From Vicinamibacterales bacterium (lineage in GTDB: Bacteria; Acidobacteriota; Vicinamibacteria; Vicinamibacterales; UBA8438): a DNA stretch of 64,000 nucleotides. The notes under the pieces are model-generated. The model was not told the origin of the DNA, made no database searches, and saw only the letters and a program-made list of their open reading frames with translations. The stretch spans positions 2,918,687-2,982,686 of the forward strand of contig OZ244900.1 of NCBI GenBank assembly GCA_965221595.1. Reading direction: 5' to 3'. Every line of letters begins with the position of its first letter. Position 1 is the stretch's first letter. The position numbers and the translations under genes were made by a program. Of the stretch, positions 4,572-50,176 are shown in pieces.

Positions 4572-6233
4572 ATGACCGCTGCGATGTCCGCGCGCGTGCT
4601 GCTCACCGCACTGCTTGCCTGCGCCGGGCTGCTCGGCCTGCATACAGCCGCCGGCCGCCAGCCGCCGGGCGCCGGCGATTCGATCACCGCCGCCGATCTG
4701 CAGCGCGAGGTCGCATTCCTCGCGTCGGACGAGATGCGGGGCCGGCTCACCGACACACCCGAGAACCGCCGTGCGGCCCGGCACATCGAGGAGCGGTTCG
4801 AGGCGTTCGGGCTGCGCGCGGTCGCCCCCGGGTCCAGCTATCGGCACCCAGTCGAGCTGCTGACCGCCGCGCTGGGCCCGGGCAACCTGCTGCGACTGCA
4901 CGTCGGCGGGGAGACCGAGACCGCCGCCAGCCCGCAGGACTTCTTCCCTGTGCCGTTCAGCGCCGCCGCGCAGGCTGCCGGCCCGGTCGTATTCGCCGGC
5001 TTCGGGATTGCGGCGGCCGATCTCGGACGCGACGACTACCGCGCCGCCGACGTGCGCGGCAAGGTCGTGCTGGTGCTCGACCACGAGCCCGGCGAGTTCG
5101 ATCCCGAGAGCCCGTTCGCCGGCGTCGTCGCGAGCGAGCGCGGCCGGGCGCTGCGCAAGGTGCTCGAGGCGCAACGGCGCGGTGCCGTCGCCGTCGCGAT
5201 CGTGGACGACGTCCACAACCACGCGCGCCGCTGGTCCATGCACGATCTGGCGGCCCGGGTGTGGCCGCGGCGGCCGCCGCGCATCCCCAACTACCAGCTC
5301 GCCGCCTGGGTCCGCCGGGTGCGCATACCGGCCGTCCGGATCTCGGTGGAGCTGGCAGGCCGACTGGTCGGCGCGTCCGGCTACACGCTGCGCGAGCTGG
5401 CCACAGCCGCCGAGACGCGCGGCGGCGCGGCGGCTGTGGAGATCCCGGACGTCAGGCTGGAGGTCGCCACGTCGGTCCGGCACGAGGTGACGGCGGTCGA
5501 CAACGTCGTCGGCCTGGTCGAAGGTGCCGATCCGACCCTGCGGCACGAGTGGCTGATCATCTGCGCGCACTACGACCACGAGGGGGCGACCGACACGGCC
5601 ATCTTCAACGGGGCGGACGACGATGCCTCCGGCGTGGCCGGGCTGCTGGAGATTGCCGAGGCGTACGCGGTGGCCCACGCAGCCGGCGCGCGGCCTGACC
5701 GCTCGATCCTGCTCGCGGCGTGGAACGCGGAGGAGCAGGGGCTGCTGGGCGCCTGGGCGTATACGGAGCAGCCGCTGGCGCCGCTCGGCGACACCGTCGC
5801 GGTGCTCAACATGGACATGATCGGGCGCAGCGAGGAAGTGCCTCCCGGCGCGGGCTACCGCTTCGTGGGCCTCGAGCCGCAGACCGCCGAATCGAACAGG
5901 AACGCCGTCAACATCATCGGTCACAGCTTCAGCGACGGACTGCGGGCCGCCGCCGAGGCCGCGAACCGCCACGCCCGGCTCGACCTGCGGTTCCGCTACG
6001 ACAACAACCGCTCGAACCTGTTGCGACGCAGCGACCAGTGGCCGTTCCTGTTCCGCCGGGTGCCGGCCATCTTCGTGCACACGGGCCTGCACCCCGACTA
6101 CCACACGGAACGCGACCGGCCGGAGACACTCGACTACGACAAGATGGCGCGTGTGGTCCGGCTCGTGTACGACCTCAGCTGGGATCTGGCCCAGAGCGGC
6201 GATCGGCCGACGTTCGACCGCCCGGCGCCGTAG
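4572..6233 (+). CDS. M28 family metallopeptidase, secreted
   Basis: The 851-aa ORF was trimmed to the in-frame ATG at 4572, which gives a signal peptide (MTAAMSARVLLTALLACAGLLG). M28 motifs present: FNGADDDASGVAGLLE, AWNAEEQGLLG, LNMDMIG. Confidence 0.8.
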   Translation: MTAAMSARVLLTALLACAGLLGLHTAAGRQPPGAGDSITAADLQREVAFLASDEMRGRLTDTPENRRAARHIEERFEAFGLRAVAPGSSYRHPVELLTAALGPGNLLRLHVGGETETAASPQDFFPVPFSAAAQAAGPVVFAGFGIAAADLGRDDYRAADVRGKVVLVLDHEPGEFDPESPFAGVVASERGRALRKVLEAQRRGAVAVAIVDDVHNHARRWSMHDLAARVWPRRPPRIPNYQLAAWVRRVRIPAVRISVELAGRLVGASGYTLRELATAAETRGGAAAVEIPDVRLEVATSVRHEVTAVDNVVGLVEGADPTLRHEWLIICAHYDHEGATDTAIFNGADDDASGVAGLLEIAEAYAVAHAAGARPDRSILLAAWNAEEQGLLGAWAYTEQPLAPLGDTVAVLNMDMIGRSEEVPPGAGYRFVGLEPQTAESNRNAVNIIGHSFSDGLRAAAEAANRHARLDLRFRYDNNRSNLLRRSDQWPFLFRRVPAIFVHTGLHPDYHTERDRPETLDYDKMARVVRLVYDLSWDLAQSGDRPTFDRPAP

Positions 6234-6810
6234 ACGTGCCCGCGAAGCGGCAGTCGACAGCCAGCGCCGCCGCCAGCAGCGCCAGGTAGCGGCGGCGCGG
6301 CACCTCGACAGCCCCGAAGCGGGCCAGGTGGGCGGTCAGCCACTGGACGTCCAGCAGCCGGTAGCCGCGGCTCCGCAGTCGCTCCACCAGCAGGCACAGC
6401 GCCACCTTCGAGGCGTCGGTCACCGTGTGGAACATCGACTCGCCGAAGAACGCGCCGCGCAGGCTTACCCCGTAGAGGCCTCCGGCGAGGCGGTCCCCCT
6501 GCCAGACCTCGATGGAGTGGGCGTACCCGGCGCCGTGCAGCGCCGTATAGCTGGCAATCAGGTCGGCGTCGAGCCAGGTGCCCTCACCGGGCCGCTTCGC
6601 ACACGCCGCGATGACCGCCGGGAAGGCGCGGTTCGTGGTCCCGTGGAAGCGGCCCTGCCGGAGCACCCGCGCGAGCCGGCGCGGCACGTGCAGCCCGTCA
6701 ATCGGCAGAATCCCGCGCCGCTCGGGGGAAAACCAGCCGACGCGCCCCGCGACCGCCATCGGGAAGAATCCTCGGCTGTACGCGCCCAGCAGCGTGTTGA
6801 TGGGGATCAT
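6175..6810 (-). CDS. aat: Leucyl/phenylalanyl-tRNA--protein transferase
   Basis: 211-aa ORF with family signature GGLYGVSLRGAFFGESMFH and an FPM...W.SP N-terminal pattern. Its 3' end overlaps the convergent M28 gene. Confidence 0.85.
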   Translation of the reverse strand: MIPINTLLGAYSRGFFPMAVAGRVGWFSPERRGILPIDGLHVPRRLARVLRQGRFHGTTNRAFPAVIAACAKRPGEGTWLDADLIASYTALHGAGYAHSIEVWQGDRLAGGLYGVSLRGAFFGESMFHTVTDASKVALCLLVERLRSRGYRLLDVQWLTAHLARFGAVEVPRRRYLALLAAALAVDCRFAGTSTAPGGRTSADRRSGPDPS

Positions 6811-8113: not shown

Positions 8114-8347
8114 CGTCGTGAATATTACCCCTCCGCGCCGCACGGGACCTTGGCGCTGGTATGATTTCCGGATGCCGGACGCGCGCCGTGCCGTCGCCGG
8201 GTACGCCTGCTCCCCCGTCACGCCTCGCGCGGGCCGTGCGCGGCAGCGTCACGACCGCGTCTCGATGCCACGTGCGGTTTCACCACGGATTGCCCCGCCC
8301 ACGGCGCCTCCGCCGCGCCGCGCGGGTGCCCGGCTCCGCTGAACGGC

Positions 8348-21700: not shown

Positions 21701-23053
21701 GTCGAACTCGGACCTCGGCAGCCGCCGGTAGGGATACGCACCCCGCACCAGCTCGAACAGCGCATCTTCTTCCCACGGCTCGCAGGCAGTCGCCGCCACG
21801 AGCTGCTGCGCCAGGATGTCGCGCGGCCAGGCCGGTATCGACCGCCGGTCCAGCACACCGCGCCGTACGGCCCGCACCAAGGCCGCCGTCTCGAGCAGCT
21901 CGTCGCGTGTGGTCGGAAAGAAACGGCCCTTCGGTACATGTGACCGCTCGACCTTGTGCCCCGAGCGCCCGACGCGCTGCAGGGCCACGGCAATCGAGCG
22001 CGGGGAGCCGATCTGGCAGACCAGGTCTACCGCTCCGATGTCAATCCCCAGCTCGAGCGACGCCGTCGCCACCACCGCGCGGAGCCGGCCCGCCTTCAGC
22101 TCCGTCTCGGCCTGGTGGCGCAACTGATGGGAAAGGCTGCCATGATGCGCCAGCACCGCGTCGGTGCCGGCCCGCTCGGCCAGATGATGCGCCACGCGCT
22201 CGGCCAGGCGCCGCGTGTTGACGAAGATGAGCGTCGTGCGGTGCTCGGCCACGAGCTGCACGAGCCGATCGTAGATCTGCCCCCACATCTCGTTGGACGC
22301 CACCACCCCGAGGTCTTCCTCGGGAACCTCCACCGCCAGGTCGAGCTCGCGCCGATGACCCGCGTTGACGACCACCGGCTCGGCGGGCGCGGCGCCCTGC
22401 AGGAAGCGGGCGACCTCCGCGATGGGATTGACGGTGGCCGACAGACCGATCCGTTGCGGCCGGCTGCCGCCGGACCGGTGCACGAGACAGTCGAGCCGCT
22501 CCAGTGTCAGGGCCAGATGCGAGCCGCGTTTGTCGTCCACCGTGGCGTGGATTTCGTCGACAATCACGACCCGCGTGTGGCGCAGCGCGCGCCGACCGCG
22601 TTCGGCCGTCAGGAGAATGAAGAGCGACTCCGGCGTCGTGACCAGGACGTGGGGTGGCCGGCGCACCATCTGCTCGCGCTCCCGGCTCGGCGTATCGCCG
22701 GTGCGCACCGCGGTCCGGATGGGCGCCAGCGCTACGCCCTGCGCCTGTGCCAGCTCGGTGATCCCGGAGAGGGGCACGTCGAGGTTCTTGCGAATGTCCG
22801 TGCTCAGCGCCTTCAGCGGCGAGACGTAGACGACCTCCGTGCGGTCCGCCAGACCCGCCGGGCCGGCGGCGCGTCCGATCAGATCGTCGAGACAGATGAG
22901 GAACGCGGCCAGGGTCTTGCCCGAACCCGTCGGCGCGGCGATCAGCACGTCGCGCCCGGCGCGAATCTGCGGCCAGGCCGCGCGCTGCGGCTCGGTGGCC
23001 CCCGCGAAACGGCCGCTGAACCACGCGCCGGTCAGCGGATGGAATCCGTCCAT
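18761..23053 (-). CDS. lhr: Lhr-like large ATP-dependent DEAD/DEAH-box helicase
   Basis: About 1430 aa with Walker A APTGSGKTLAAF, DEIH box, and a long Lhr-type C-terminal extension. I prefer ATG at 23051-23053 (MDGFHPLTGAWF) to the track's TTG at 23080, which would read into a conserved noncoding repeat. Confidence 0.85.
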   Translation of the reverse strand: MDGFHPLTGAWFSGRFAGATEPQRAAWPQIRAGRDVLIAAPTGSGKTLAAFLICLDDLIGRAAGPAGLADRTEVVYVSPLKALSTDIRKNLDVPLSGITELAQAQGVALAPIRTAVRTGDTPSREREQMVRRPPHVLVTTPESLFILLTAERGRRALRHTRVVIVDEIHATVDDKRGSHLALTLERLDCLVHRSGGSRPQRIGLSATVNPIAEVARFLQGAAPAEPVVVNAGHRRELDLAVEVPEEDLGVVASNEMWGQIYDRLVQLVAEHRTTLIFVNTRRLAERVAHHLAERAGTDAVLAHHGSLSHQLRHQAETELKAGRLRAVVATASLELGIDIGAVDLVCQIGSPRSIAVALQRVGRSGHKVERSHVPKGRFFPTTRDELLETAALVRAVRRGVLDRRSIPAWPRDILAQQLVAATACEPWEEDALFELVRGAYPYRRLPRSEFDDVVAMLSDGIATDRGRHGAYIHRDRVNRVLRGRRGGRLAALTSGGAIPENANYLVVAEPEGATVGTVDEDFAVESLAGDVFLLGTTSWRIRRVEAGRVRVQDAGGAAPSIPFWRGEAPGRTPELSAEVSAVRGRIVELAGESGASPRAGHGPAEAFLQAECGLDAAGAEQAVAYVRAGVAGLGTLPTAQTVVAERFFDEGGGMQLVIHAPFGARVNRAWGLALRKRFCRSFNFELQAAATDNGIVISLAEQHSFPLEAIYRFLTPGTVADVLTQAMLPAPMFAARWRWNASRALAVLRFAGGRKVPPPIQRMRSDDLLASVFPDQVACQENLTGEIRIPHHPLVDETIRDCLHEAMDLDGLRAVIAGIEDGRIATRTIETAEPSVFSHEILNANPYAFLDDAPLEERRARAVQLRRTLPRDARDVGALDAAAITAVARESWPVVRDADELHDALLTLSLTPPVAAWQGWYDTLERARRATSLVVGSRRLWLATERQRLAEALHPGCPLTCDVPAIDQPVADSREAAAAEVLRGWLESSGPQRPSVLADALGLPLPVVEAGLARLEGEGQVLRGQFTPGGAGGETEWCNRRVLARIHRLTLGRLRREIEPASAADFVRFLARWQHVAPRMQLHGAAGLLQVLRQLQGYETSAAAWEPDVLARRVADYDPELLDRLCLSGDVMWGRLSPHPAFEVGASGAPGGHEAARPRARRRVRPTRVAPVTFFLREDAGWLVPDVDATGGRQPALSHAARAVLEQLTGLGASFLRDLVRATGRLPSEVEDGLWELAAAGLVTADGFDNLRALIDPKRRRGEGRFRAARPRHAAGRWALLRTPPAPAAPSRAAAGTRVEAFARQLLARWGVVFRDLIAREALAPPWRELLRALRTLEARGEIRGGRFVDGFVGEQFARPEAVDVLRSVRRAPRPAAADDSLRLSAADPLNLVGIVTPGARVSALSGAVVEVLERPPAFIRERATELTAG

Positions 23054-23064
23054 GCGCGCGGCTC

Positions 23065-23224
23065 GCAGCCCGTGGCGCAACCCCGCGTCGTACCGGGACA
23101 GGCGCTGTGACCGCCTGGCAAGGCGTGACGACGGAGCCTACGGGATATATTCGACCGCGGAGCAACGCAGTCAGGCGGGCTGCATCGTCCGTCGAATGCA
23201 GCAGGGATTCTTGCCACGGGCTGC
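23065..23224. repeat. Copy A of a ~160-nt structured intergenic element (12-bp terminal inverted repeat / closing stem)
   Basis: It aligns in the same orientation with 48673-48831, with about 134/160 positions identical by hand alignment. The ends GCAGCCCGTGGC and GCCACGGGCTGC are perfect reverse complements. Internal hairpins lie at 23086-23133 and 23179-23202. Confidence 0.75.
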
Positions 23225-23251
23225 TATTGTAGCGCCCGCTGGCGGCGGGCG

Positions 23252-24976
23252 TCAGCCGCGGCGGCCGCCGGCCTCGAACACCCGCTCGCACGCCTTCTGG
23301 AAGCGCTCGGCGAGACGCTGCCCCTCGGGTCCGGGAAGCTGGCCGAGTTTGCGCCGCTCCGCCTGCAGGCGCTTCACCTGCTCGATGGCGGCGCGGCGAC
23401 GGGCGCCCTCGTCGACTCGCGCCCCCATCAGGTTGTTGGCGAGCGCGTCGCGCCAGCGGGTGGCCAGTATCTGCGCCGGCGACTCCTCGGGCACGGTCTC
23501 CTCTTCGACAAGCGATTCGACGCGCTGGCAGAGATCGTCGAGCCGGGCAAGCTGTCGCGCCGGGTCGAGCTCGGTCCCGCGAAAGGCGGGCGGATAGGCC
23601 GCGACCACGCGGCTGACTGCCTGCCCGAAGCGGGCCGCGAGCCTGCGTCGCAAGGCGTGCGGCAATTCCGGAGCCTGACGCCACTGCTGCTGCACGTCCC
23701 GCACCTTCTCGGCCAGCCCCTGCGGGGGGTCGCTGGGAGGGTCGTCCACCGGCAGCAAGGCCTCGATCTCGCGGCACAGCGCCTCGCGCGCTTCCACCTT
23801 GTCGGCCGCGGCCTCGTGCTCCGCCGCCTGGGCGCGGCTGAAGACCGCGTCACAGGCAGTCCGGAACCGCTGCCAGACCGTCTCGGACCGCTTGCGCTGC
23901 ACGGCGCCGATCTGCTTCCAGTCGGCTTGCGCCTGCCGCGCCTGCGCGACCGCGTCCGCGATGTCGGTGACGGCCTCGAGCGCCTCGACACGTGCGATCA
24001 ACGCCTCCTTGCGCTCGAGGTTCCGGGACCACTCCTGCTTCCGTTTCGCGAGGTCGTCCTTGCGCCGGGCGAAGAACGCGCTGCAGGCGGCGCGGAACCG
24101 GTCCCAGGTCTCCTGCTGCCGGCGGCGCGGCACGGGACCGAGCTGCTTCCACTCGGCCTGGAGCTCGGTGATGCGTTGAACGGTCCTGAGCCAGTCGGTC
24201 GACGACGCGAGGCGCTCGGCTTCCTCGACGAGTGCGAGCCTGCGCGCGAGGTTGCGGTCGCGGTCGGCAGCCTGCCCGGCCAGGTATGTCCGGCACCGCT
24301 CGTAGACCTGCTCGTGGGCCGCCTCGAAGCGGGCGCGGAGCTGCTCGCCGCGAGCCTTCGGCACGTCGGCCGCCTGCCGCCAGCGGGCCATGATGTCCCG
24401 GTAGCGGGCGGCCAACTGCGCGTCGTCCTCGAGGCCGGCCAGCGCCTCGAGTTCGGTGCACAAGCCCTCCTGCACGCCCAGATTGGCCCAGCGCTGCCAG
24501 TCGGCGAAATCGCGCAGCTCGCGCACGCGGCCCAGCAGTGCGGTCTGCACGCGCCGCAACCGCCGGGCGAGCGCCGCGCGGGCGCGCCGCGGCGGGGCGG
24601 ATACCGCGGCGTCCGCGGCCTGCATCTCCTCCAGCGCCCGCCGGACCGCCCGCAGGTGCCGCTCCGCGACCGACAGCTCCAGCTTGTCCGAGGCCGCGGC
24701 GCCCTCGGCGGCGGCGCACAGCCGGCCGAGCTGGTCGACGTCGTCCCGCGTCCCGGCCGCGGCGGGCGGAGGCGTTTCCTCCGCAGGGGCAGCATCAGCG
24801 GCCGGGCTGTCGGCGGCGGAGACAGCCGGGGCCGCGGGCGCAGCCGGGGCCGCGCCGGGTGCGGCCGCGACGTGCTCCTCGACCGCCTCGGCGCCCTCCT
24901 CCGCTGCGGTTCCGTCGGCAGGGGGCGCCGGATCCTGGGGGTCCGGGTGCGCGTGCGGCTCGTCTAGCGGTTCCAT
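23252..24976 (-). CDS. DUF349 repeat protein with Ala/Pro-rich N-terminal region
   Basis: Repeated W(K/R)Q.G.VP....E.LW.RF..A helical DUF349 units (e.g. WKQLGPVPRRRQQETWDRFRAACSAFF). The start was set to ATG at 24976 (MEPLDEP), but the track start at 25084 is also possible. Confidence 0.65.
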   Translation of the reverse strand: MEPLDEPHAHPDPQDPAPPADGTAAEEGAEAVEEHVAAAPGAAPAAPAAPAVSAADSPAADAAPAEETPPPAAAGTRDDVDQLGRLCAAAEGAAASDKLELSVAERHLRAVRRALEEMQAADAAVSAPPRRARAALARRLRRVQTALLGRVRELRDFADWQRWANLGVQEGLCTELEALAGLEDDAQLAARYRDIMARWRQAADVPKARGEQLRARFEAAHEQVYERCRTYLAGQAADRDRNLARRLALVEEAERLASSTDWLRTVQRITELQAEWKQLGPVPRRRQQETWDRFRAACSAFFARRKDDLAKRKQEWSRNLERKEALIARVEALEAVTDIADAVAQARQAQADWKQIGAVQRKRSETVWQRFRTACDAVFSRAQAAEHEAAADKVEAREALCREIEALLPVDDPPSDPPQGLAEKVRDVQQQWRQAPELPHALRRRLAARFGQAVSRVVAAYPPAFRGTELDPARQLARLDDLCQRVESLVEEETVPEESPAQILATRWRDALANNLMGARVDEGARRRAAIEQVKRLQAERRKLGQLPGPEGQRLAERFQKACERVFEAGGRRG

Positions 24977-35329: not shown

Positions 35330-36508
35330 GTGAGCGACCGCTCAGCCATCGAATGGACGGATGCCACCTGGAACCCGGTCCGTGGCTGCTCCAAGGTCAG
35401 CGCCGGCTGCGCGCACTGCTACGCGCAGACGTTCGCCAAGCGCTTCAGAGGCGTGCCCGGACATCCGTTCGAACAGGGTTTCGACCTCCGGCTCGTGCCG
35501 GAGAAGCTGAACCAACCCTTGTCGTGGCGCCGCCCGCGAAGAATCTTCGTTAACTCCATGAGCGATCTGTTTCACGAAGACGTGCCAGTCGACTTCATCG
35601 CGTCCATCGGCGCGGTGATGCGCAGCGCCGGCTGGCACACGTTCCAGGTGTTGACCAAGCGACATGGCCGCATGCAGCGTCTGCTCGCCGGCGAACTGCG
35701 CTGGATGAGCGGTCTCCCCAACGTCTGGTACGGCGTGAGCGTGGAGAACCGAACGCCCGGACTGATGCGGCTCGACGCGCTGCGCCACACCCCCGCCGTC
35801 GTGCGCTTCGCCTCCCTGGAACCGCTTCTGGAAGACCTGGGTCCCATCGACCTGACCGGCATCCATTGGGTGATCGCCGGCGGCGAGAGCGGTCCGCGCG
35901 CCAGGCGCATGGAGCAGGACTGGGTCCTGGATATCGAACGACAGTGCAGGGAACACGGTGTGCCCTTCTTCTTCAAGCAGTGGGGCGGCGTGCGCAAGCA
36001 GTCGACCGGACGGGTGCTGAACGGCCGAACATACGACGACTTCCCGGCCACCGCCCACGAGTCCCCTCGCCGCATATCGCCGCTTCCGCATGACGACGGG
36101 CGGCGGCGCGACCCGGTACCTACTTTTACACCTTACAAATCACTCCAAGGGGCGCGAGCTTATGAAGGAATGCATGTGGAAGGTCGCGCCGGACGGCGGC
36201 TTCGAAGTATTCCAGCGCGACGATCCCAGACAGCCGTTTCTTATCAAGCCGTCACCGGACTTCGAACCGTTGCGGAAATGGCTGCTTGGACAGCTGGCAC
36301 AGGGACCGCGCAAAAGAGGCGAACTCCATCGAGAACTGCGGCTGACACTCTGGCTGCCGTCTCACCTGCAGAAGCTCGCCGGCCGACTGCGCAAGGGGGG
36401 CGAACTCGACTTCGACAAGGCGTCCGATACCTACTCTTTGCCGTCCAGGCGCCGGCTGTTCCTCTTCTGATCCGATCACGTTCGCCTTCAGGACAGCTCG
36501 CCTGGTGA
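35330..36508 (+). CDS. DUF5131 (phage Gp37/Gp68 family) protein; 3' end doubtful
   Basis: GTG start. Family pattern IEWTDATWNPVRGCSKVSAGCAHCYA, IFVNSMSDLFHE, WVIAGGESGP, FFFKQWGG. The recognisable domain ends near residue 235 (about 36035). The remaining ~155 codons are Arg/Ala/Thr-rich with poor third-position GC. Confidence 0.7.
   Translation: MSDRSAIEWTDATWNPVRGCSKVSAGCAHCYAQTFAKRFRGVPGHPFEQGFDLRLVPEKLNQPLSWRRPRRIFVNSMSDLFHEDVPVDFIASIGAVMRSAGWHTFQVLTKRHGRMQRLLAGELRWMSGLPNVWYGVSVENRTPGLMRLDALRHTPAVVRFASLEPLLEDLGPIDLTGIHWVIAGGESGPRARRMEQDWVLDIERQCREHGVPFFFKQWGGVRKQSTGRVLNGRTYDDFPATAHESPRRISPLPHDDGRRRDPVPTFTPYKSLQGARAYEGMHVEGRAGRRLRSIPARRSQTAVSYQAVTGLRTVAEMAAWTAGTGTAQKRRTPSRTAADTLAAVSPAEARRPTAQGGRTRLRQGVRYLLFAVQAPAVPLLIRSRSPSGQLAW
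36162..36470 (+). CDS. Hypothetical small protein, possible winged-helix type (candidate)
   Basis: 102-aa ORF (MKECMWKVAPDGG...) in a different frame from the DUF5131 tail. An AAGGGG sequence lies about 11 nt upstream of the ATG. Third-position GC is clearly higher than in the overlapping DUF5131 frame. I recognise no homology. Confidence 0.35.
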   Translation: MKECMWKVAPDGGFEVFQRDDPRQPFLIKPSPDFEPLRKWLLGQLAQGPRKRGELHRELRLTLWLPSHLQKLAGRLRKGGELDFDKASDTYSLPSRRRLFLF

Positions 36509-36545: not shown

Positions 36546-37367
36546 TCACTTCTCCAGGTTGGCGGCCCCGGATTGCAGCGGCTCGGGGCCGGCCCGCCTC
36601 CCGCGGTGGAACACCAGGGTCGACCGGCCGTCGCCGGCCTGGAGCCGCTCCATGCGGACGCCGAAGACGGAGGTGACCAGGGCGTCGTCGAGCACCTGGG
36701 CCGGAGGGCCGGCGGCGCGCAGGCGGCCGTGGTGGAGCACGGCCATATCGTCCGCCCAGCGGGCCACGAGGTTGAGGTCGTGCAGCGCCAGCGCAACGGT
36801 CGTGCCGGTGGCGGCCAGCGCCCGCAGCAGCGTGAGCGTCTCGATGACGTGGTCGATGTCGAGGTTGGCGGTCGGCTCGTCGAGCAGCAGCGCCTGCGAG
36901 CCGGTGGCCAAGCTGCGAGCGATGACGGCGCGGCGACGCTCGCCCCCGGAGAGCTCGGTCACGAAGCGGTCGGCGAGGTGTGCGACATCGGCCCGCGCCA
37001 GTGCCGAGGCGACGAGCTCGGCGTCCGCGGGACCCGACGCGTCGAAACGGCCCAGGTGCGGATGGCGCCCCATCGTCACCAGCTCGCGCACCGTGAACGG
37101 GACGTCGGTACCGGTCTCCTGCGGCACGAAGCTGATGCGCTGCGCGAGCACGCGGCGCGAGAGCCGGGACAGGCGAGTCCCGTCCAGTGCGGCGTCGCCC
37201 GCGGTGGGACGCCAGAGGCCGGCCAGCAGGCGCAGCACGGTCGACTTGCCTGCCCCGTTCGGTCCGACGAAGGCCATGATGCGGCCGGGGCCGACCTCGA
37301 CCGTGACGTCACGCACCAGGTGGCGGGTGCCGATGCGGAAGCCGGCGCGGTCGAGGCGGAGACTCAT
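36546..37367 (-). CDS. ABC transporter ATP-binding protein, iron-siderophore/cobalamin (FecE/BtuD-like) type
   Basis: Trimmed to ATG at 37367, which overlaps the permease stop (ATGA). Walker A GPNGAGKST, signature LSGGERRR, Walker B LLLDEPT. Confidence 0.85.
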   Translation of the reverse strand: MSLRLDRAGFRIGTRHLVRDVTVEVGPGRIMAFVGPNGAGKSTVLRLLAGLWRPTAGDAALDGTRLSRLSRRVLAQRISFVPQETGTDVPFTVRELVTMGRHPHLGRFDASGPADAELVASALARADVAHLADRFVTELSGGERRRAVIARSLATGSQALLLDEPTANLDIDHVIETLTLLRALAATGTTVALALHDLNLVARWADDMAVLHHGRLRAAGPPAQVLDDALVTSVFGVRMERLQAGDGRSTLVFHRGRRAGPEPLQSGAANLEK

Positions 37368-38434
37368 GACGGGCCGAAGCTCCCCCGTTGGCGGCGCAGG
37401 AGATAGAGAAAGAACGGCGCGCCGAACGCGGCGGTGACGATGCCGAGCCGGATCTCCTCCGGCGGGTGGATGGTGCGGGCCAGCAGATCGCAGATGATCA
37501 GGAACGCACCCCCGCCGAGCATGGCCGCCGGGAGCAGGGTGCGGTGTGACGGTCCGAGCACCAGTCGCAGCATGTGCGGCACGATCAGGCCCACGAAGCC
37601 GATGACGCCGCTGACTGCCACGGCCGCGCCGGTCAGCATCGCCGCCGTCGTCAGGATGATGCGCCGCACCCGCTCCACCTCGACGCCGAGGCTGGCGGCG
37701 GTCTCCTCGCCGAGCACGAGCAGGTCCAGGTCGCGTGAGTACCAGCGGGCGCCGAGCGCCCCCAGCACCAGCGGCGGCAGACAGATCCACACGTGCGTCC
37801 AGGTGCGGTTGTCGAGACCGCCCATCATCCAGAAGACGATCTCGTTGGCGACCTGCCAGTTGACTACGCTCAGCGAGATCAGGAGCGACGAGACGGCGGT
37901 AGCCAACGCCCCCAGCGCGATGCCGGCGAGCAGCAGCGTGGCCACGGGGGTGCGGCCGGCCCGCGTGGCGATGGCGTAGACGGTCGCGAGCGCAGCGAGC
38001 GCGCCGACGAAAGCGAACAGCGGCAGCCAGAACACCCCCGCGGCGGACAGCCCGCTGACGAACGTGATCACGGCACCGAGGGCCGCGCCCTGGCTGATGC
38101 CGATGACGCTCGGCTCGGCCAGGGGGTTGCGGAAGAGCCCCTGGAGCTGCGTGCCGGCGACACCCAGTGCGGCGCCGGCGAGCGCAGCGACCAGCACGCG
38201 CGGCGTCCGGATGAGCCAGACGATCACCTGGTCCGCCTCGGAGACCTCGTGCAGGCCCACCCAGCCGTCCGGCAGCGTGCGGGCGGCAAGTACACGCGCG
38301 ACGGTGCCCCAAGGGATGCGCGTGCTGCCGACCGCAATCGCGGCCACCACCGCCACCGCCAACAGCACCGCCAGCAGCGGCAGACCCACCCAGGCCGCGG
38401 CGCGAACGTGCGACCGCCTGCCCGCCTCGGTCAC
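37364..38434 (-). CDS. FecCD family ABC permease (BtuC-like)
   Basis: 356-aa polytopic ORF with the FecCD pattern (RIPWGTVARVL, PRVLVAALAGAALGVAGT, GVIGFVGLIVPH). Confidence 0.85.
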   Translation of the reverse strand: MTEAGRRSHVRAAAWVGLPLLAVLLAVAVVAAIAVGSTRIPWGTVARVLAARTLPDGWVGLHEVSEADQVIVWLIRTPRVLVAALAGAALGVAGTQLQGLFRNPLAEPSVIGISQGAALGAVITFVSGLSAAGVFWLPLFAFVGALAALATVYAIATRAGRTPVATLLLAGIALGALATAVSSLLISLSVVNWQVANEIVFWMMGGLDNRTWTHVWICLPPLVLGALGARWYSRDLDLLVLGEETAASLGVEVERVRRIILTTAAMLTGAAVAVSGVIGFVGLIVPHMLRLVLGPSHRTLLPAAMLGGGAFLIICDLLARTIHPPEEIRLGIVTAAFGAPFFLYLLRRQRGSFGPS

Positions 38435-40033: not shown

Positions 40034-40329
40034 GCCGGTTGTCCCCCTGGGCGCCCGGGGCGAGAGGTCCCGCAGCCGCGGCCTTCCCGTATCATCTGCA
40101 ACACGATGGGTATTGCGTCCGTCGCATGCCGCCGCGTGAATCCGCCGCCCTGCACGCATGCTCGCGGGTGCAGGGAGCCGACGCCTGCGCGCGGTGAACG
40201 GGCGGCTACCAGTCGATGCGGCGCGGACGCCGACGACGAGCCATGAAGGGCAGGAACCTCCTTTCGGCGTGTCCACGCGCCGAATCTCACGGACCGGCAG
40301 ACCGGACCGCGGGGCCGTGCGACCGTCCC

Positions 40330-40505
40330 GATGAGCGGTCTCCTGACTCGCGGATCGAGGCTGGGCGGCAACGTCTTCCCGTGCTCGCCGAGCACAGTGA
40401 CTGGCGCCCCACGGCGCCGGTGTGCCGCCCGCTCCCCGCTCACAGTGGCGGGACCGTGTGGGAATTGCACCCACTTCCCGGAATCATCGGGAGCAATGCT
40501 GTCAG
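40330..40505 (-). promoter_or_regulatory. Adenosylcobalamin (cobalamin class I) riboswitch
   Basis: The minus strand reads GGGAAGTGGGTGCAATTCCCACACGGTCCCGCCACTGTGAGCGGGGAGC ... CAGTCACTGTGCTCGGCGAGCACGGGAAGACG ... AGTCAGGAGACCGCTC (B12 box at 40334-40348). It lies upstream of the adenosyltransferase and BtuFCD-like operon. Confidence 0.8.
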
Positions 40506-40580
40506 CGGGCAGTATAGCACTGCCCCGCCCGGCGGGGACGGCCGGTCGCCAGGCCGGTTGCCGGCGCGGGGGACGGGCAG

Positions 40581-42833: not shown

Positions 42834-44756
<1,923 letters not shown>

Positions 44757-44807
44757 CGGCCCGTGGTGAAACCCCGCGTTGCACCGAGACAGGCGAGGTC
44801 GCAACGC
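44757..44807. repeat. Partial copy (5' module) of the repeat family, followed by a hairpin
   Basis: GGCCCGTGGTGAAACCCCGCGTTGCACCGAGACAGGCG matches the first ~40 nt of copy B (GCAGCCCGTGGTGAACCCCGCGTCGCACCGAGACGGGCG). GCGTTGC (44776-44782) pairs with GCAACGC (44801-44807). Confidence 0.4.
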
Positions 44808-46231: not shown

Positions 46232-46340
46232 CAACCCGTGGCGCAAGGCCCCGCCGGCCCCGCGGGCTGCCAGGTGTCCGTCGGCCCCGACCCCGCCGGC
46301 ACGCGGGCGCCGGGGTTGATACCATAGGTGGGTTTCTCCG

Positions 46341-47483: not shown

Positions 47484-48601
47484 CGAGGGCATCGCTGGCA
47501 GCGGCGGTCGTCCTGCTGCCGGGTTCCCCGGCCGCGGCCCAATCGACCACCGCCGGCCCCGATGCGTGGGCCCAGTTCCGGGGTACGCCCGAGCTCAGCG
47601 GGGCGTCGCTGGCCAGCATCCCCGACGATCTCGAGCTGCTGTGGACCCTCGACGCGGGCGAATCGATAGACTCGTCCGCGGCCATCGCCGACGGCGTGGT
47701 CTACGTCGGGACCTACAGCGGCGAGCTGCTCGCCGTGGATCTCGAGACGGGGGCGGAGCGCTGGCGGTACACGGCCAGCGAGGAGATGGGGATCGGCGAG
47801 TCGTCGCCGGCGGTGAGCCACGGCCTCGTCTTCGTCGGCGATCTCGGCGGCGTCCTGCACGCGGTCGACGCCGCGACAGGCGCGGCGGTTTGGACATACC
47901 AGACCGAAGGCGAGATCAAGTCCTCGCCCGTCGTCTCGGGCGACACGGTGCTGATCGGCTCCTACGACGGCCACCTCTACGGTCTCGCGGCGGCCAGCGG
48001 AGAGTTCCTGTGGCGGCACGAGACGCTCAACTACGTGCACGCCACGCCGGCCGTGGTCGACGGTGTCGCGTACTTCGGAGGCTGCGACGAGATGTTCCGC
48101 GGCGTGCGCGTGTCCGACGGTGAAGAGGTCTTTGCCGTGCCGGCGGGCGCCTACACCGCAGCGTCGCCGACGACGGACGGCGACCGTGCCTACTTCGGCA
48201 CGTTCAACAACGAGGTGATTGGCATCGACCTGGCGTCGCAGGAGTTGCTGTGGCGCTACGAGCATCCGCGGCGGCACTTTCCGTTCTACTCGTCCGCGCT
48301 CAACATCGACGGGACCATCGTGATCGGGGGCCGCGACCGGATGGTGCACGCCATCGACCAGGCGTCCGGCGCGGCGCTGTGGACGTACATGACCCGGGCG
48401 CGCGTCGACTCTTCGCCGGCCGCAGCCGGCGGGCGCGTCTACATCGGCTCGGGCGACGGGCGCCTGTACGTGCTCGACCTGGCCACGGGCGAGAAGCTCT
48501 GGGAGTTCGATACCGGGGCGCCGCTGTCGGCGTCGCCGGCCATCGCCGCCGGCCGGCTCGTGATCGGCTCGCAGGACGGGGTGCTGTACTGTTTCGGCTG
48601 A
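47471..48601 (+). CDS. PQQ-like beta-propeller repeat protein (BamB-like fold), secreted
   Basis: Trimmed to ATG at 47471, overlapping the ADH end. Signal peptide LAAAVVLLPGSPAAAQ. Blade repeats: GAERWRY, GAAVWTY, GEFLWRH, QELLWRY, GAALWTY, GEKLWEF. Confidence 0.7.
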   Translation: MRILTRASLAAAVVLLPGSPAAAQSTTAGPDAWAQFRGTPELSGASLASIPDDLELLWTLDAGESIDSSAAIADGVVYVGTYSGELLAVDLETGAERWRYTASEEMGIGESSPAVSHGLVFVGDLGGVLHAVDAATGAAVWTYQTEGEIKSSPVVSGDTVLIGSYDGHLYGLAAASGEFLWRHETLNYVHATPAVVDGVAYFGGCDEMFRGVRVSDGEEVFAVPAGAYTAASPTTDGDRAYFGTFNNEVIGIDLASQELLWRYEHPRRHFPFYSSALNIDGTIVIGGRDRMVHAIDQASGAALWTYMTRARVDSSPAAAGGRVYIGSGDGRLYVLDLATGEKLWEFDTGAPLSASPAIAAGRLVIGSQDGVLYCFG

Positions 48602-48672
48602 TGCGCAGCCGCCGCGACCGGTGCACCCGCGCCGCCGCCGGGCAGCGCCTGCACCGGCAATCGATGCTGCCG

Positions 48673-48831
48673 GCAGCCCGTGGTGAACCCCGCGTCGCAC
48701 CGAGACGGGCGCTGTGCCTGTCTGCCAAGGCGTGACGAGGGAGCCTATCGGCCATATTCGACCGCGGAGCAACGCCATCAGACGGGATGCATCATCCGTC
48801 GAGTGCAGCGGGGGCTTTTGCCGCCGGCTGC
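48673..48831. repeat. Copy B of the ~160-nt structured intergenic element
   Basis: See copy A. The arms GCAGCCCGTGGT and GCCGCCGGCTGC pair with one mismatch and two G-U pairs. The element ends 10 nt before the radical SAM ATG. Confidence 0.75.
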
Positions 48832-48841
48832 TATAGTAGGC

Positions 48842-50176
48842 ATGATGACCGATGTTTCGCCTCCGGCGACCGCCGTCGAGACGGACGTCGGCAGCTACTT
48901 CGTCGCCAACTACCCGCCGTTCTCGGTCTGGACGTCGGAAGCCGTCGCCGAGGCGGCCCGCCCGGCGCTGGCAACCCCGCCGGCCGACGTGCCGCTCGGC
49001 CTCTACCTGCATATCCCGTTCTGCCGCAAGCGCTGCCACTTCTGCTACTTCCGGGTCTACACCGACCGCAACGCCCGCGAGGTGCAGTCGTACCTCGACG
49101 TGCTGGGCCGCGAGTGGGAGCTCTACGCCACCCAGCCCGCCATTGCCGGACGCCCGCTCGACTTCATCTACTTCGGCGGCGGTACGCCGTCGTTCCTGTC
49201 GGTCCGCCAGCTCCGGGGCCTGGTCGACCGGCTGTCGGCCGTCAGCCCCTGGTCGACCGCCGCCGAGATTACCTTCGAGTGCGAGCCGGGCACGCTCACC
49301 GAACCGAAGCTCGCCGCCATCCGCGAGCTCGGGGTCACGCGCTTGAGCCTCGGCGTCGAGCACTTCGACGACCGCATCCTGGAGCTCAACGGGCGCGCGC
49401 ATCGCTCGGCCGAGATCTTCCGCGCGTACGAGTTCGCGCGCTCGATCGGCTTCCCGCAGATCAACATCGACCTGATTGCCGGCATGCTCGGCGAGACCGA
49501 CTCCCAGTGGCGGGACGCCGTGCAGCGGGTCATCGCGCTCGACCCGGACAGCGTCACCATCTACCAGATGGAGCTGCCGTTCAACACGACGATCAGCGGC
49601 GACAAGCTGAGCGGCGGCGGCCAGTTCCAGGAGACCGTAGCGCCCTGGGCCACCAAGCGCCGCTGGGTGGACGAAGCCTTCGCCGCGCTCGAGCGCGCGG
49701 GCTACGCCATAGGCAGCGCGTACACCGCCGTCAAGGACCCGGCGCGTACCCGGTTCGTCTACCGCGACCGGCTCTGGGAGGGCGCCGACCTGGCGGGGCT
49801 CGGCGTGGCGTCGTTCGGCCACGTCAACGGCGTCCACATGCAGAACCTCGACTCGTGGGGCGCCTACGCCGCAGCGGTCGAGGCCGGCCGCATCCCGCTG
49901 AACCGCGCCTACCGCCCGACGGAGGAGGAGCGCCTCATCCGCGAGCTCGTGCTGCAGCTCAAGCTGGGCTCCATCCGTCCCGCCTACTTCCGGGACAAGT
50001 ACGGCGTCGACCCGCGCGACCGGTTTCCCGGCCAGCTCGCATCGCTCGACCGCGACGGCTACCTGGCCGAAGCGTCGCCGGACGCGGTTCGCCTGTCGCG
50101 CGACGGCCTGCTGCGCGTCGACAGCCTGCTGCCCCGCTTCTTCCTCCCGGCGCACACGGACATCCGCTACACGTAG
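48842..50176 (+). CDS. HemN-like (class C) radical SAM protein, coproporphyrinogen-III oxidase family
   Basis: Trimmed to ATG at 48842. The CX3CX2C motif occurs in LYLHIPFCRKRCHFCYF, with further motifs YFGGGTPS and INIDLIAG, and a HemN_C-like tail. The function cannot be told from sequence alone (HemN/HemW versus methyltransferase type). Confidence 0.8.
   Translation: MMTDVSPPATAVETDVGSYFVANYPPFSVWTSEAVAEAARPALATPPADVPLGLYLHIPFCRKRCHFCYFRVYTDRNAREVQSYLDVLGREWELYATQPAIAGRPLDFIYFGGGTPSFLSVRQLRGLVDRLSAVSPWSTAAEITFECEPGTLTEPKLAAIRELGVTRLSLGVEHFDDRILELNGRAHRSAEIFRAYEFARSIGFPQINIDLIAGMLGETDSQWRDAVQRVIALDPDSVTIYQMELPFNTTISGDKLSGGGQFQETVAPWATKRRWVDEAFAALERAGYAIGSAYTAVKDPARTRFVYRDRLWEGADLAGLGVASFGHVNGVHMQNLDSWGAYAAAVEAGRIPLNRAYRPTEEERLIRELVLQLKLGSIRPAYFRDKYGVDPRDRFPGQLASLDRDGYLAEASPDAVRLSRDGLLRVDSLLPRFFLPAHTDIRYT

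Follow-up and report, generated by a model that had tools for sequence, protein, structure and literature searches.

The DUF349-lhr spacer and its repeated element

The window analysed here is a stretch of 64,000 nucleotides of Vicinamibacterales DNA with a G+C content of 71%. Within it, the spacer between a DUF349 gene and lhr, both encoded on the minus strand, holds an intergenic element of about 160 bases (copy A), which lies antisense to its two neighbours. A second copy (copy B), placed in sense, separates a PQQ-repeat-like gene that ends with the stop at 48601 from a radical-SAM coproporphyrinogen-oxidase-like gene that starts with the ATG at 48842. [quoted passage not shown] The second has stood, on the strength of many copies, a 4-bp target-site duplication, and empty sites at related loci, while the first has not. 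The two copies, and the ends of copy A, are placed as follows.

23066..23223, plus strand: copy A, assigned as a full-length 158-bp MITE running CAG...CTG (nhmmer with the family hidden Markov model (HMM), 133.5 bits, E = 4e-39, model positions 2-158)
23066..23080, plus strand: left terminal inverted repeat of copy A, CAGCCCGTGGCGCAA, equal to helix 1 of the family structure (98.8% paired)
23209..23223, minus strand: right terminal inverted repeat of copy A, where the minus strand reads CAGCCCGTGGCAAGA
48674..48830, plus strand: copy B, assigned as a full-length 157-bp MITE (nhmmer, 134.0 bits, E = 3e-39)

The two copies are co-linear and in the same orientation, with 83.9% identity over 168 nt in the window-internal alignment (E = 3e-47), a likeness far above chance. 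In the family alignment they have 133 of 159 positions in common and differ by one 1-nt indel. The blocks predicted to be identical, TATTCGACCGCGGAGCAACGC (21 nt) and CAAGGCGTGACGA (13 nt), are present in both copies, and copy A indeed carries the perfect 12-bp inverted repeat formed by GCAGCCCGTGGC (23065-23076) and GCCACGGGCTGC (23213-23224). The limits first drawn around the element were too wide. The element proper extends from CAG to CTG, that is, over 23066-23223 in copy A and 48674-48830 in copy B, and the bases beyond these limits belong to the target-site duplication and the native flank.

Copies A and B are only 82% and 84% identical to the family consensus, respectively, and yet have 11 derived states in common, which makes them old members of a lineage-specific subfamily.

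A family dispersed among Vicinamibacterales genomes

Beyond the window, the element was sought in one genome per species with an exact pattern taken from its 5' part, CCGTGGNGN{1,2}ACCCCGCGTNGNACCG (26 nt), which under-samples fragments that keep only the 3' part. At least 117 loci were found in 40 species-level genomes. Among the matches listed, these are 38 metagenome-assembled genomes (MAGs) labelled Vicinamibacterales, Vicinamibacteria, Vicinamibacteraceae, or Acidobacteria, together with two labelled Bryobacterales. Individual chromosomes carry at least 10-13 copies; OZ252008.1 and OZ253576.1 contain at least 13 loci each, dispersed along the length of the chromosome. The original prediction proposed to recognise an ordinary MITE by a large number of copies, at loci without relation to one another and with target-site duplications, and this is the picture that these genomes present. 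With the family HMM, nhmmer gave 170 matches in the fetched DNA, four of them in the window. The window and one of the family loci are only about 75% identical at the nucleotide level, and relatives of the window DUF349 protein occur in soil-type assemblies, from which an uncultured relative of Vicinamibacterales would be the source.

The modal length of the element is about 158 bp, and its ends form an inverted repeat of about 15 bp, CAGCCCGTGGTGAAA ... TTTCRCCACGGGCTG. In 48 distinct full-length copies, the mean column identity is 90%, and the 14 pairs of helix 1 (columns 2-15 with 148-161) are 98.8% paired; over roughly 30 species, the copies are about 91% identical to one consensus. The element has no coding capacity, and 1-base indels among the copies disrupt every reading frame. 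Deletion derivatives have lost the middle symmetrically and kept both ends, long copies contain other nested repeats, and both 5'-only and 3'-only fragments occur; such short, nested, and truncated forms are as expected of a decaying transposon family.

The 5' pattern had 0 matches in IMG/VR, and the family consensus had none among PLSDB plasmids and GenBank phages (blastn, E <= 1e-3). Searches of the literature for Acidobacteria MITEs, Vicinamibacter repeats, and the sequence itself returned no description of this family.

The copies labelled Bryobacterales (L033, L035, and L059) are as close to the consensus as those of Vicinamibacterales. Coming from a different class of Acidobacteriota, they are a sign of horizontal spread or else of mis-binned contigs. 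A second short hairpin repeat, ...GTAGGGGCAACCCTTGTGGTTGCCC... (unit length about 49 nt), occurs nested in several copies of the element (L053, L013, L016, L024, L038, L065, and L073), and L053 additionally holds a tandem array of at least nine of these units (approximately 5880-6390). In copies of OZ252008.1, the central loop is enlarged by a unit of the form ACCGCGGACTG(N)CGCAGTCCG.

Target-site duplication

The consensus junctions of the family read CTAG-CAGCCC...GGGCTG-CTAG. Of the 167 copies that have kept both ends, 63 are flanked by the same 4 bp on either side, as against two copies for 5 bp and none for 6 bp. CTAG is the commonest flank, in 66 and 52 of the 167 copies on the two sides, and its variants include CTAT, CTGG, CCAG, TCAG, and TTGA. 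Being palindromic, CTAG might itself belong to the inverted repeat. Where the flanks vary, however, they match directly and not as complements, and are therefore a true duplication. When only copies with CTAG on neither side are considered, 21 of 91 have matching flanks (including ATAG, CAAG, CCAG, CTAT, CTGA, CTGG, TCAG, TTGA, and TTTA) versus 1.7 expected, a number reached by none of 10,000 permutations (p < 1e-4). The element has a 4-bp target-site duplication with a preference for CTAG-like targets, and models of a 2-bp (TA) or a 3-bp duplication were dropped on these flank statistics. In a genome with 71% G+C, CTAG-like targets are mostly TAG stop codons and -10 promoter boxes. The duplications of the two window copies are placed as follows.

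23224..23227, plus strand: target-site duplication of copy A, intact, CTAT (ATAG in gene orientation)
23062..23065, plus strand: target-site duplication of copy A, decayed, CTCG, a 2/4 match to CTAT; the extra four bases relative to the empty sites
48831..48834, plus strand: target-site duplication of copy B, intact, CTAT, followed by native AGTAGG(N)3-4ATG
48670..48673, plus strand: presumed decayed left duplication of copy B, CCGG, a 1/4 match to CTAT, assigned by position only

Empty sites at the lhr and radical-SAM loci

Orthologous DUF349-lhr loci were reached through homologues of the DUF349 protein. In four of them (L119, L120, L121, and L123), the spacer measures only 26-30 nt and ends in ...GCTACAATAGCCGCGCGC directly before the ATG. 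The minus strand of the window reads GCTACAATAG, the 158 nt of the element, and CGAGCCGCGCGC before the same ATG and, compared with L119, L120, and L123, it has exactly 162 extra nt at ATAG, that is, 158 + 4. In L118, the ATAG site is intact and an independent copy, turned the other way with respect to the genes, is found about 45 nt upstream, inserted at the DUF349 stop codon with CTAG on both flanks.

In L124, the DUF349-lhr locus holds repeats of other kinds along with a family remnant. A different repeat, CAGATGGGGCTGTGCCCCAAGCCCCCGGCGTCCGCTTGCGGGGACCCC..., with a unit of roughly 110 nt, occurs several times in tandem in L124 (3430-3800) and once in L122 (3358-3469), and its presence in the same spacer of these two relatives marks the spacer as a repeat hot spot.

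At the radical-SAM locus, L125, L126, and L127 lack copy B, and the spacers of the latter two measure 46 nt. Upstream of the ATG, all three have retained CTATAGTAGG or GTATAGTAGG, in the form of ...CTGCTATAGTAGGTCG or ...GGTATAGTAGGAACG directly before it, and L126 and L127 read ...GGACTGCTATAGTAGGTCG and then ATG without the element.

Copy A was inserted at ATAG, between a -10-like TACAAT box and the lhr ATG, and copy B at CTAT, where the TATAGT box of the radical-SAM gene has its upstream edge. The first of these boxes belongs to a native site.

23226..23255, minus strand: native promoter-like site CTGACG-18-TACAAT upstream of lhr (promoter scan, 1 vs 0.0 expected)

These sites also account for the conservation that had been noted over 8 nt 3' of the right arm, where copy A reads TATTGTAG and copy B TATAGTAG. 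The likeness is present, but the bases are native DNA at two independent targets and are found at the empty sites as well, with CTACAATAG kept in five loci that do not have the window insertion (L118, L119, L120, L121, and L123). The empty sites thus rule out TATTGTAG/TATAGTAG as a part of the element or as its promoter. On the strands of the genes, the 8 nt hold the -10-like boxes TACAAT and TATAGT, located 4-10 nt from the start codons (23226-23231 on the minus strand for lhr; 48832-48837 on the plus strand for the radical-SAM gene, where TATAGT is preceded by TGC). The flanks of copies A and B look alike because the element picks T/A-containing tetramers, which are rare in this genome outside -10 boxes and stop codons. 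The near-start arrangement of a -10-like box recurs in L119, L120, L123, L126, and L127, an indication that transcripts of this lineage may be leaderless or nearly so.

The TTG-extended start of lhr, which had been said to read into noncoding sequence, does so, since the TTG at 23080 lies inside the element. In six related loci, the start of the lhr orthologues is the ATG (MDGFHPLT...) equivalent to window position 23053, and the extended start is therefore an artefact of the insertion.

Further copies inside the window

The original two-copy picture is correct for A and B but incomplete, as the window also holds a 5' fragment, a decayed copy, and a possible mini remnant. More copies were sought by local BLAST and a degenerate pattern of the 5' part, and then with the family HMM in nhmmer. 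The pattern gave four matches versus 0.00 expected, and the HMM recovers exactly four copies (A, B, C, and D), which makes 4-5 in 64 kb when the possible remnant is counted.

44757..44799, plus strand: copy C, the 5' 44 nt of the element only (nhmmer, 31.3 bits, E = 1e-7, model positions 3-44)
~8208..8292, minus strand: copy D, decayed, with the 5' 74 nt recognisable (nhmmer, 20.3 bits, E = 3e-4)
46232..46269, plus strand: possible 38-nt mini remnant consisting of the two ends only, CAACCCGTGG...CCGCGGGCTG (match to the terminal inverted repeats with three mismatches; uncertain)

Copy C adjoins CTAG (44753-44756), and the upstream gene stops with the TAG of this tetramer. Copy D belongs to the GGTCGTGAC... 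variant subfamily. The 38-nt hairpin CAACCCGTGGCGCAAGGCCCCGCCGGCCCCGCGGGCTG at 46232-46269 (plus strand) stands immediately after a TGA stop and its flanks mismatch one another; it may be an extreme deletion derivative in which both ends of the element have been joined. On reading the translations of two poorly called stretches of the window, no transposase was seen.

Several 5'-only fragments, namely those of L044, L061, L080, and L106 (three in the latter) and the one at 44757-44799 in the window, have a recurrent breakpoint at approximately model positions 36-53, just past the 5' strand of the third helix, with unrelated sequence beyond it.

A rod-like fold under apparent strand-specific selection

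That the fold of the element matters was part of the original prediction, and it stood in part, in the form of strong, strand-specific covariation in a rod that spans the whole element. The local hairpins listed at the time (CGTCGT/ACGACG, CAGGCG/CGCCTG, and GCTGCAT/ATGCAGC) did not stand: they are 76.6% paired across the family, no better than shuffles, and were rejected for lack of covariation.

In the RNAalifold prediction from 48 copies (-64.2 kcal/mol), the rod pairs the 5' half of the element with the 3' half along its whole length, with compensatory changes in 17 of 49 pairs. In the completed rod of 54 pairs, 97.5% of the cells hold standard pairs and 17 pairs (87 cells) have changed on both sides. 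None of 500 shuffles reaches any of five measures for this rod and, in a control where the partners were slid by 1-3 columns, pairing was 31-42%. The centre of the rod contains three near-invariant tandem G·A/A·G motifs (columns 63/98 and 64/97, 66/95 and 67/94, and 70/91 and 71/90), and a fourth is found at columns 31/133 and 32/132. The three central motifs are flanked by covarying Watson-Crick pairs.

The mismatches within the stem are far from symmetric, with 211 cases of G·T/T·G versus 15 of A·C/C·A, and 338 of the G·U type versus 62 of the A·C type in a looser set of 81 copies. Likewise, the alignment folds to an energy of -40 on the plus strand, compared with -13 on the minus strand. 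In paired columns, the changes per column from C>T (3.08) and A>G (3.33) exceed those from G>A (1.17) and T>C (1.36), while the unpaired columns have values of 1.75 for C>T, 1.88 for G>A, 0.74 for A>G, and 1.60 for T>C. The excess of G·U cannot be put down to a strand bias of mutation, given that no such bias exists in the unpaired columns. The bias depends on pairing, and the target of selection therefore appears to be a single-stranded form of the plus strand. Double-stranded DNA in a cruciform would show no difference between the strands and could not give this pattern. Among the window copies, the fold of copy B is asymmetric (-75.8 kcal/mol, z = -2.9, on the plus strand and -67.6 kcal/mol, z = -0.9, on the minus strand), and copy A has no plus-strand advantage (-75.8 kcal/mol on the plus strand and -78.0 kcal/mol on the minus strand).

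Identity and proposed mechanism

The 160-base element is identified here, with a probability of roughly 0.85, as an old insertion of a previously undescribed, non-coding MITE of the Vicinamibacterales, a group of soil acidobacteria. It is short and non-coding, and it has the terminal inverted repeats, the fixed 4-bp duplication, the dispersed copies, and the empty sites of a MITE. In the proposed mechanism, a DDE transposase of the IS5 type, acting in trans, would make a 4-bp staggered cut at CTAG. After insertion, transcripts of lhr from the native promoter would carry about 165 nt of antisense element as their 5' leader. The single-stranded form under selection could be RNA, made by co-transcription with the upstream gene, or a DNA hairpin, and selection could act either on proliferation or on the retention of copies. 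RNA is slightly favoured by a 2:1 sense bias (48 sense versus 23 antisense copies between co-directional genes, p = 0.004, on crude gene calls), and the DNA hairpin by the symmetry of the internal deletions.

Several points weigh against this identification or against parts of it. The duplications of the window copies A and B are decayed, with two and one of the four positions matching, and the left flank of copy B is too diverged to be aligned to the empty sites. The IS5-type assignment is derived solely from the duplication, by its length and its sequence, and other families with 4-bp duplications would be possible. Neither the long copies nor the surroundings of the solo ends, in approximately 0.94 Mb of fetched DNA, yielded an autonomous element or a transposase with these ends. 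This search covered the copies with a first right-end-like match more than 300 nt from the 5' module, as well as the genes beside 25 solo 5' ends which, on reading their translations, encode ordinary housekeeping proteins, for example HemB, ribosomal protein S1, SufS, and aldehyde dehydrogenase, and no transposase. Compensation within a palindrome can moreover arise without selection, via hairpin-templated repair. Double-strand cut-and-paste transposition alone, finally, predicts neither the strand-specific structural selection, nor the identity of about 91% to the consensus over roughly 30 species, nor the 2:1 sense bias (48 vs 23).

Alternative explanations

The explanation that survives best is an addition to the MITE model rather than a replacement, in which the copies act at the RNA level as an mRNA-stabilising, processing, or protein-binding module. 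It is a tentative proposal, unlikely on the whole, but the one with most in its favour. The active form would be a sense-transcribed rod in 3' untranslated or intergenic regions, with approximately -60 to -76 kcal/mol and invariant tandem G·A motifs, and host selection would account for both the strand-specific fold and the sense bias. The ERIC, Correia, and pneumococcal BOX and RUP repeats have been reported to act as RNA-level elements. Such a role agrees with the tolerance of G·U but not of A·C, restricted to paired columns, with the plus-strand preference of the alignment fold (-40 vs -13), and with the three nearly invariant tandem G·A/A·G motifs between covarying pairs. It also agrees with the gene contexts which, according to crude GC3-based gene calls, comprise 48 sense, 23 antisense, 23 divergent, and 19 convergent placements; the same figures nonetheless make antisense, divergent, and convergent placements common. 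Sense copies lie at a median of 11 nt from the upstream stop codon, but the CTAG target alone accounts for this closeness. A better preservation of sense copies was rejected, as they do not differ significantly from antisense ones (Mann-Whitney p = 0.39). Nor was a U-tract or terminator-like tail found, and copy A folds equally well on both strands.

A wider proposal, somewhat more doubtful still, is that the family goes beyond selfish DNA and would be a structure-dependent and strand-specific element, nearly unchanged across a whole order of Acidobacteriota, which would spread through a single-stranded DNA intermediate or would have been adopted by the host as an RNA module. If true, a single-stranded intermediate would be unusual for an element with 4-bp duplications, and a host-adopted rod, with its three invariant tandem G·A motifs, would serve at dozens of loci to bind a protein or to control the ends of mRNAs.

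The mobilisation of single-stranded DNA by a strand-specific HUH/Y1 enzyme, as in IS200/IS605 or the REP/REPIN-RAYT systems, with the rod as recognition structure, is improbable. It would explain the strand-specific selection for folding and the long-term conservation of the sequence over many species, as well as the internal deletions, whose symmetry about the hairpin axis is expected if the hairpin forms in vivo. Known HUH/Y1 systems, nevertheless, have no target-site duplications, and subterminal hairpins take the place of terminal inverted repeats, whereas in this family the duplication is exactly 4 bp long, with 21 matched pairs among the non-consensus tetramers, and the window insertion amounts to 158 + 4 nt. 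Furthermore, on reading the translations, neither a RAYT-like nor a TnpA-like gene was seen near any inspected copy.

A chromosomal small RNA or cis-regulatory RNA family with few duplications, which would be transcribed from the minus-strand TACAAT/TACTAT box at the closing stem, retains hardly any probability despite the strong covariation in a defined structure and the promoter-like site beside copy A on the minus strand, given that the -10 box is native flank at the empty sites, that the favoured folding strand is the plus strand and thus opposite to that promoter, that dozens of copies per genome carry target-site duplications, that the orientation to the neighbouring genes is inconsistent, and that no Rfam family matches even at E <= 10. 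At orthologous positions the element is not conserved, as related spacers do without it, insertions are independent, and both orientations and all four gene contexts occur. The Rfam searches bear out the earlier remark that no known RNA family fits, with nothing relevant on copies A and B at E <= 10 and only a cobalamin riboswitch in the gathering-threshold scan of the window. The element is not an RNA gene. By eye, the consensus contains an internal sigma-70-like site, CTGACA-N16-CATATT, which is degenerate in the window copies.

Significance and other features of the window

Identification of the family removes a false RNA-gene candidate from the annotation and explains odd intergenic regions and over-extended open reading frame (ORF) starts, such as the TTG of lhr, in Vicinamibacterales. 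These bacteria are abundant in soil and known almost only from MAGs, in which repeats break assemblies and mislead gene callers. Owing to its CTAG-like preference, the element lands in -10 boxes and at stop codons, so that leaders and 3' ends are rewired. In the window, the leader added to lhr would measure about 165 nt, and the radical-SAM gene would be cut off from whatever stood upstream of its -10 box. Strand-specific selection confined to pairing also offers a clean case for asking which single-stranded form a MITE needs to spread or persist.

Besides the element, the window contains the cobalamin riboswitch mentioned above, which matches Rfam family RF00174 with 76 bits (E = 6e-17) on the minus strand, at 40316-40521. 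It lies upstream, on that strand, of genes that resemble those of an ABC transporter by their translations only, with a FecCD-type permease at approximately 37364-38434 and an ATPase-like ORF at approximately 36546-37400. In a region where the GC3-based caller found no normal gene, there is an ORF at 35330-36508 (plus strand), together with a small overlapping ORF at 36090-36470 (plus strand). The larger one may be related to the phage Gp37/Gp68 (DUF5131) family.

Comparison with known systems

With the structured RNAs of Rfam 15, the family has in common a defined secondary structure with compensatory changes; contrary to them, it is mobile, multicopy, and independent of context, and it matches none of their families. 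The likeness to REP/REPIN-RAYT systems is found in the intergenic hairpin repeats, their long persistence in a lineage, and the apparent selection of the hairpin itself. It differs from them in its 4-bp duplications, in a 158-bp unit that is not a doublet of 20-40-nt REPs, in having no GTAG-type head, and in that no RAYT gene was seen beside the inspected copies.

The Correia (NEMIS) elements of Neisseria, the enterobacterial ERIC, and the pneumococcal RUP and BOX are near-complete palindromic MITEs that fold as RNA. Like these, the new family consists of elements of 100-160 bp with no ORF, with terminal inverted repeats and a short fixed duplication, present in dozens to hundreds of intergenic copies with hairpin potential over the whole element, and inserted beside promoters and gene ends. 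Unlike them, it has an unrelated sequence and an acidobacterial host, a consensus shared at about 91% over at least 40 species, and a strand-asymmetric covariation with three invariant tandem G·A motifs. Its duplication is also different, with 4 bp at CTAG instead of the TA duplicated by Correia and RUP.

This target leads to the IS5 group, whose transposases are of the DDE type. IS5 is reported to duplicate the tetranucleotide CTAG (PMC10379815). A 4-bp duplication with a preference for CTAG (a YTAR-like target) and terminal inverted repeats of about 15 bp are common to both, while the new element, in contrast to the IS5 group, holds no transposase gene, and no insertion sequence with matching ends (CAG/GAGCCCGTGG...) was found in the fetched loci. 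In its behaviour, the family is thus closest to the palindromic MITEs (Correia, ERIC, and RUP) and, in its choice of target, to the IS5 group.

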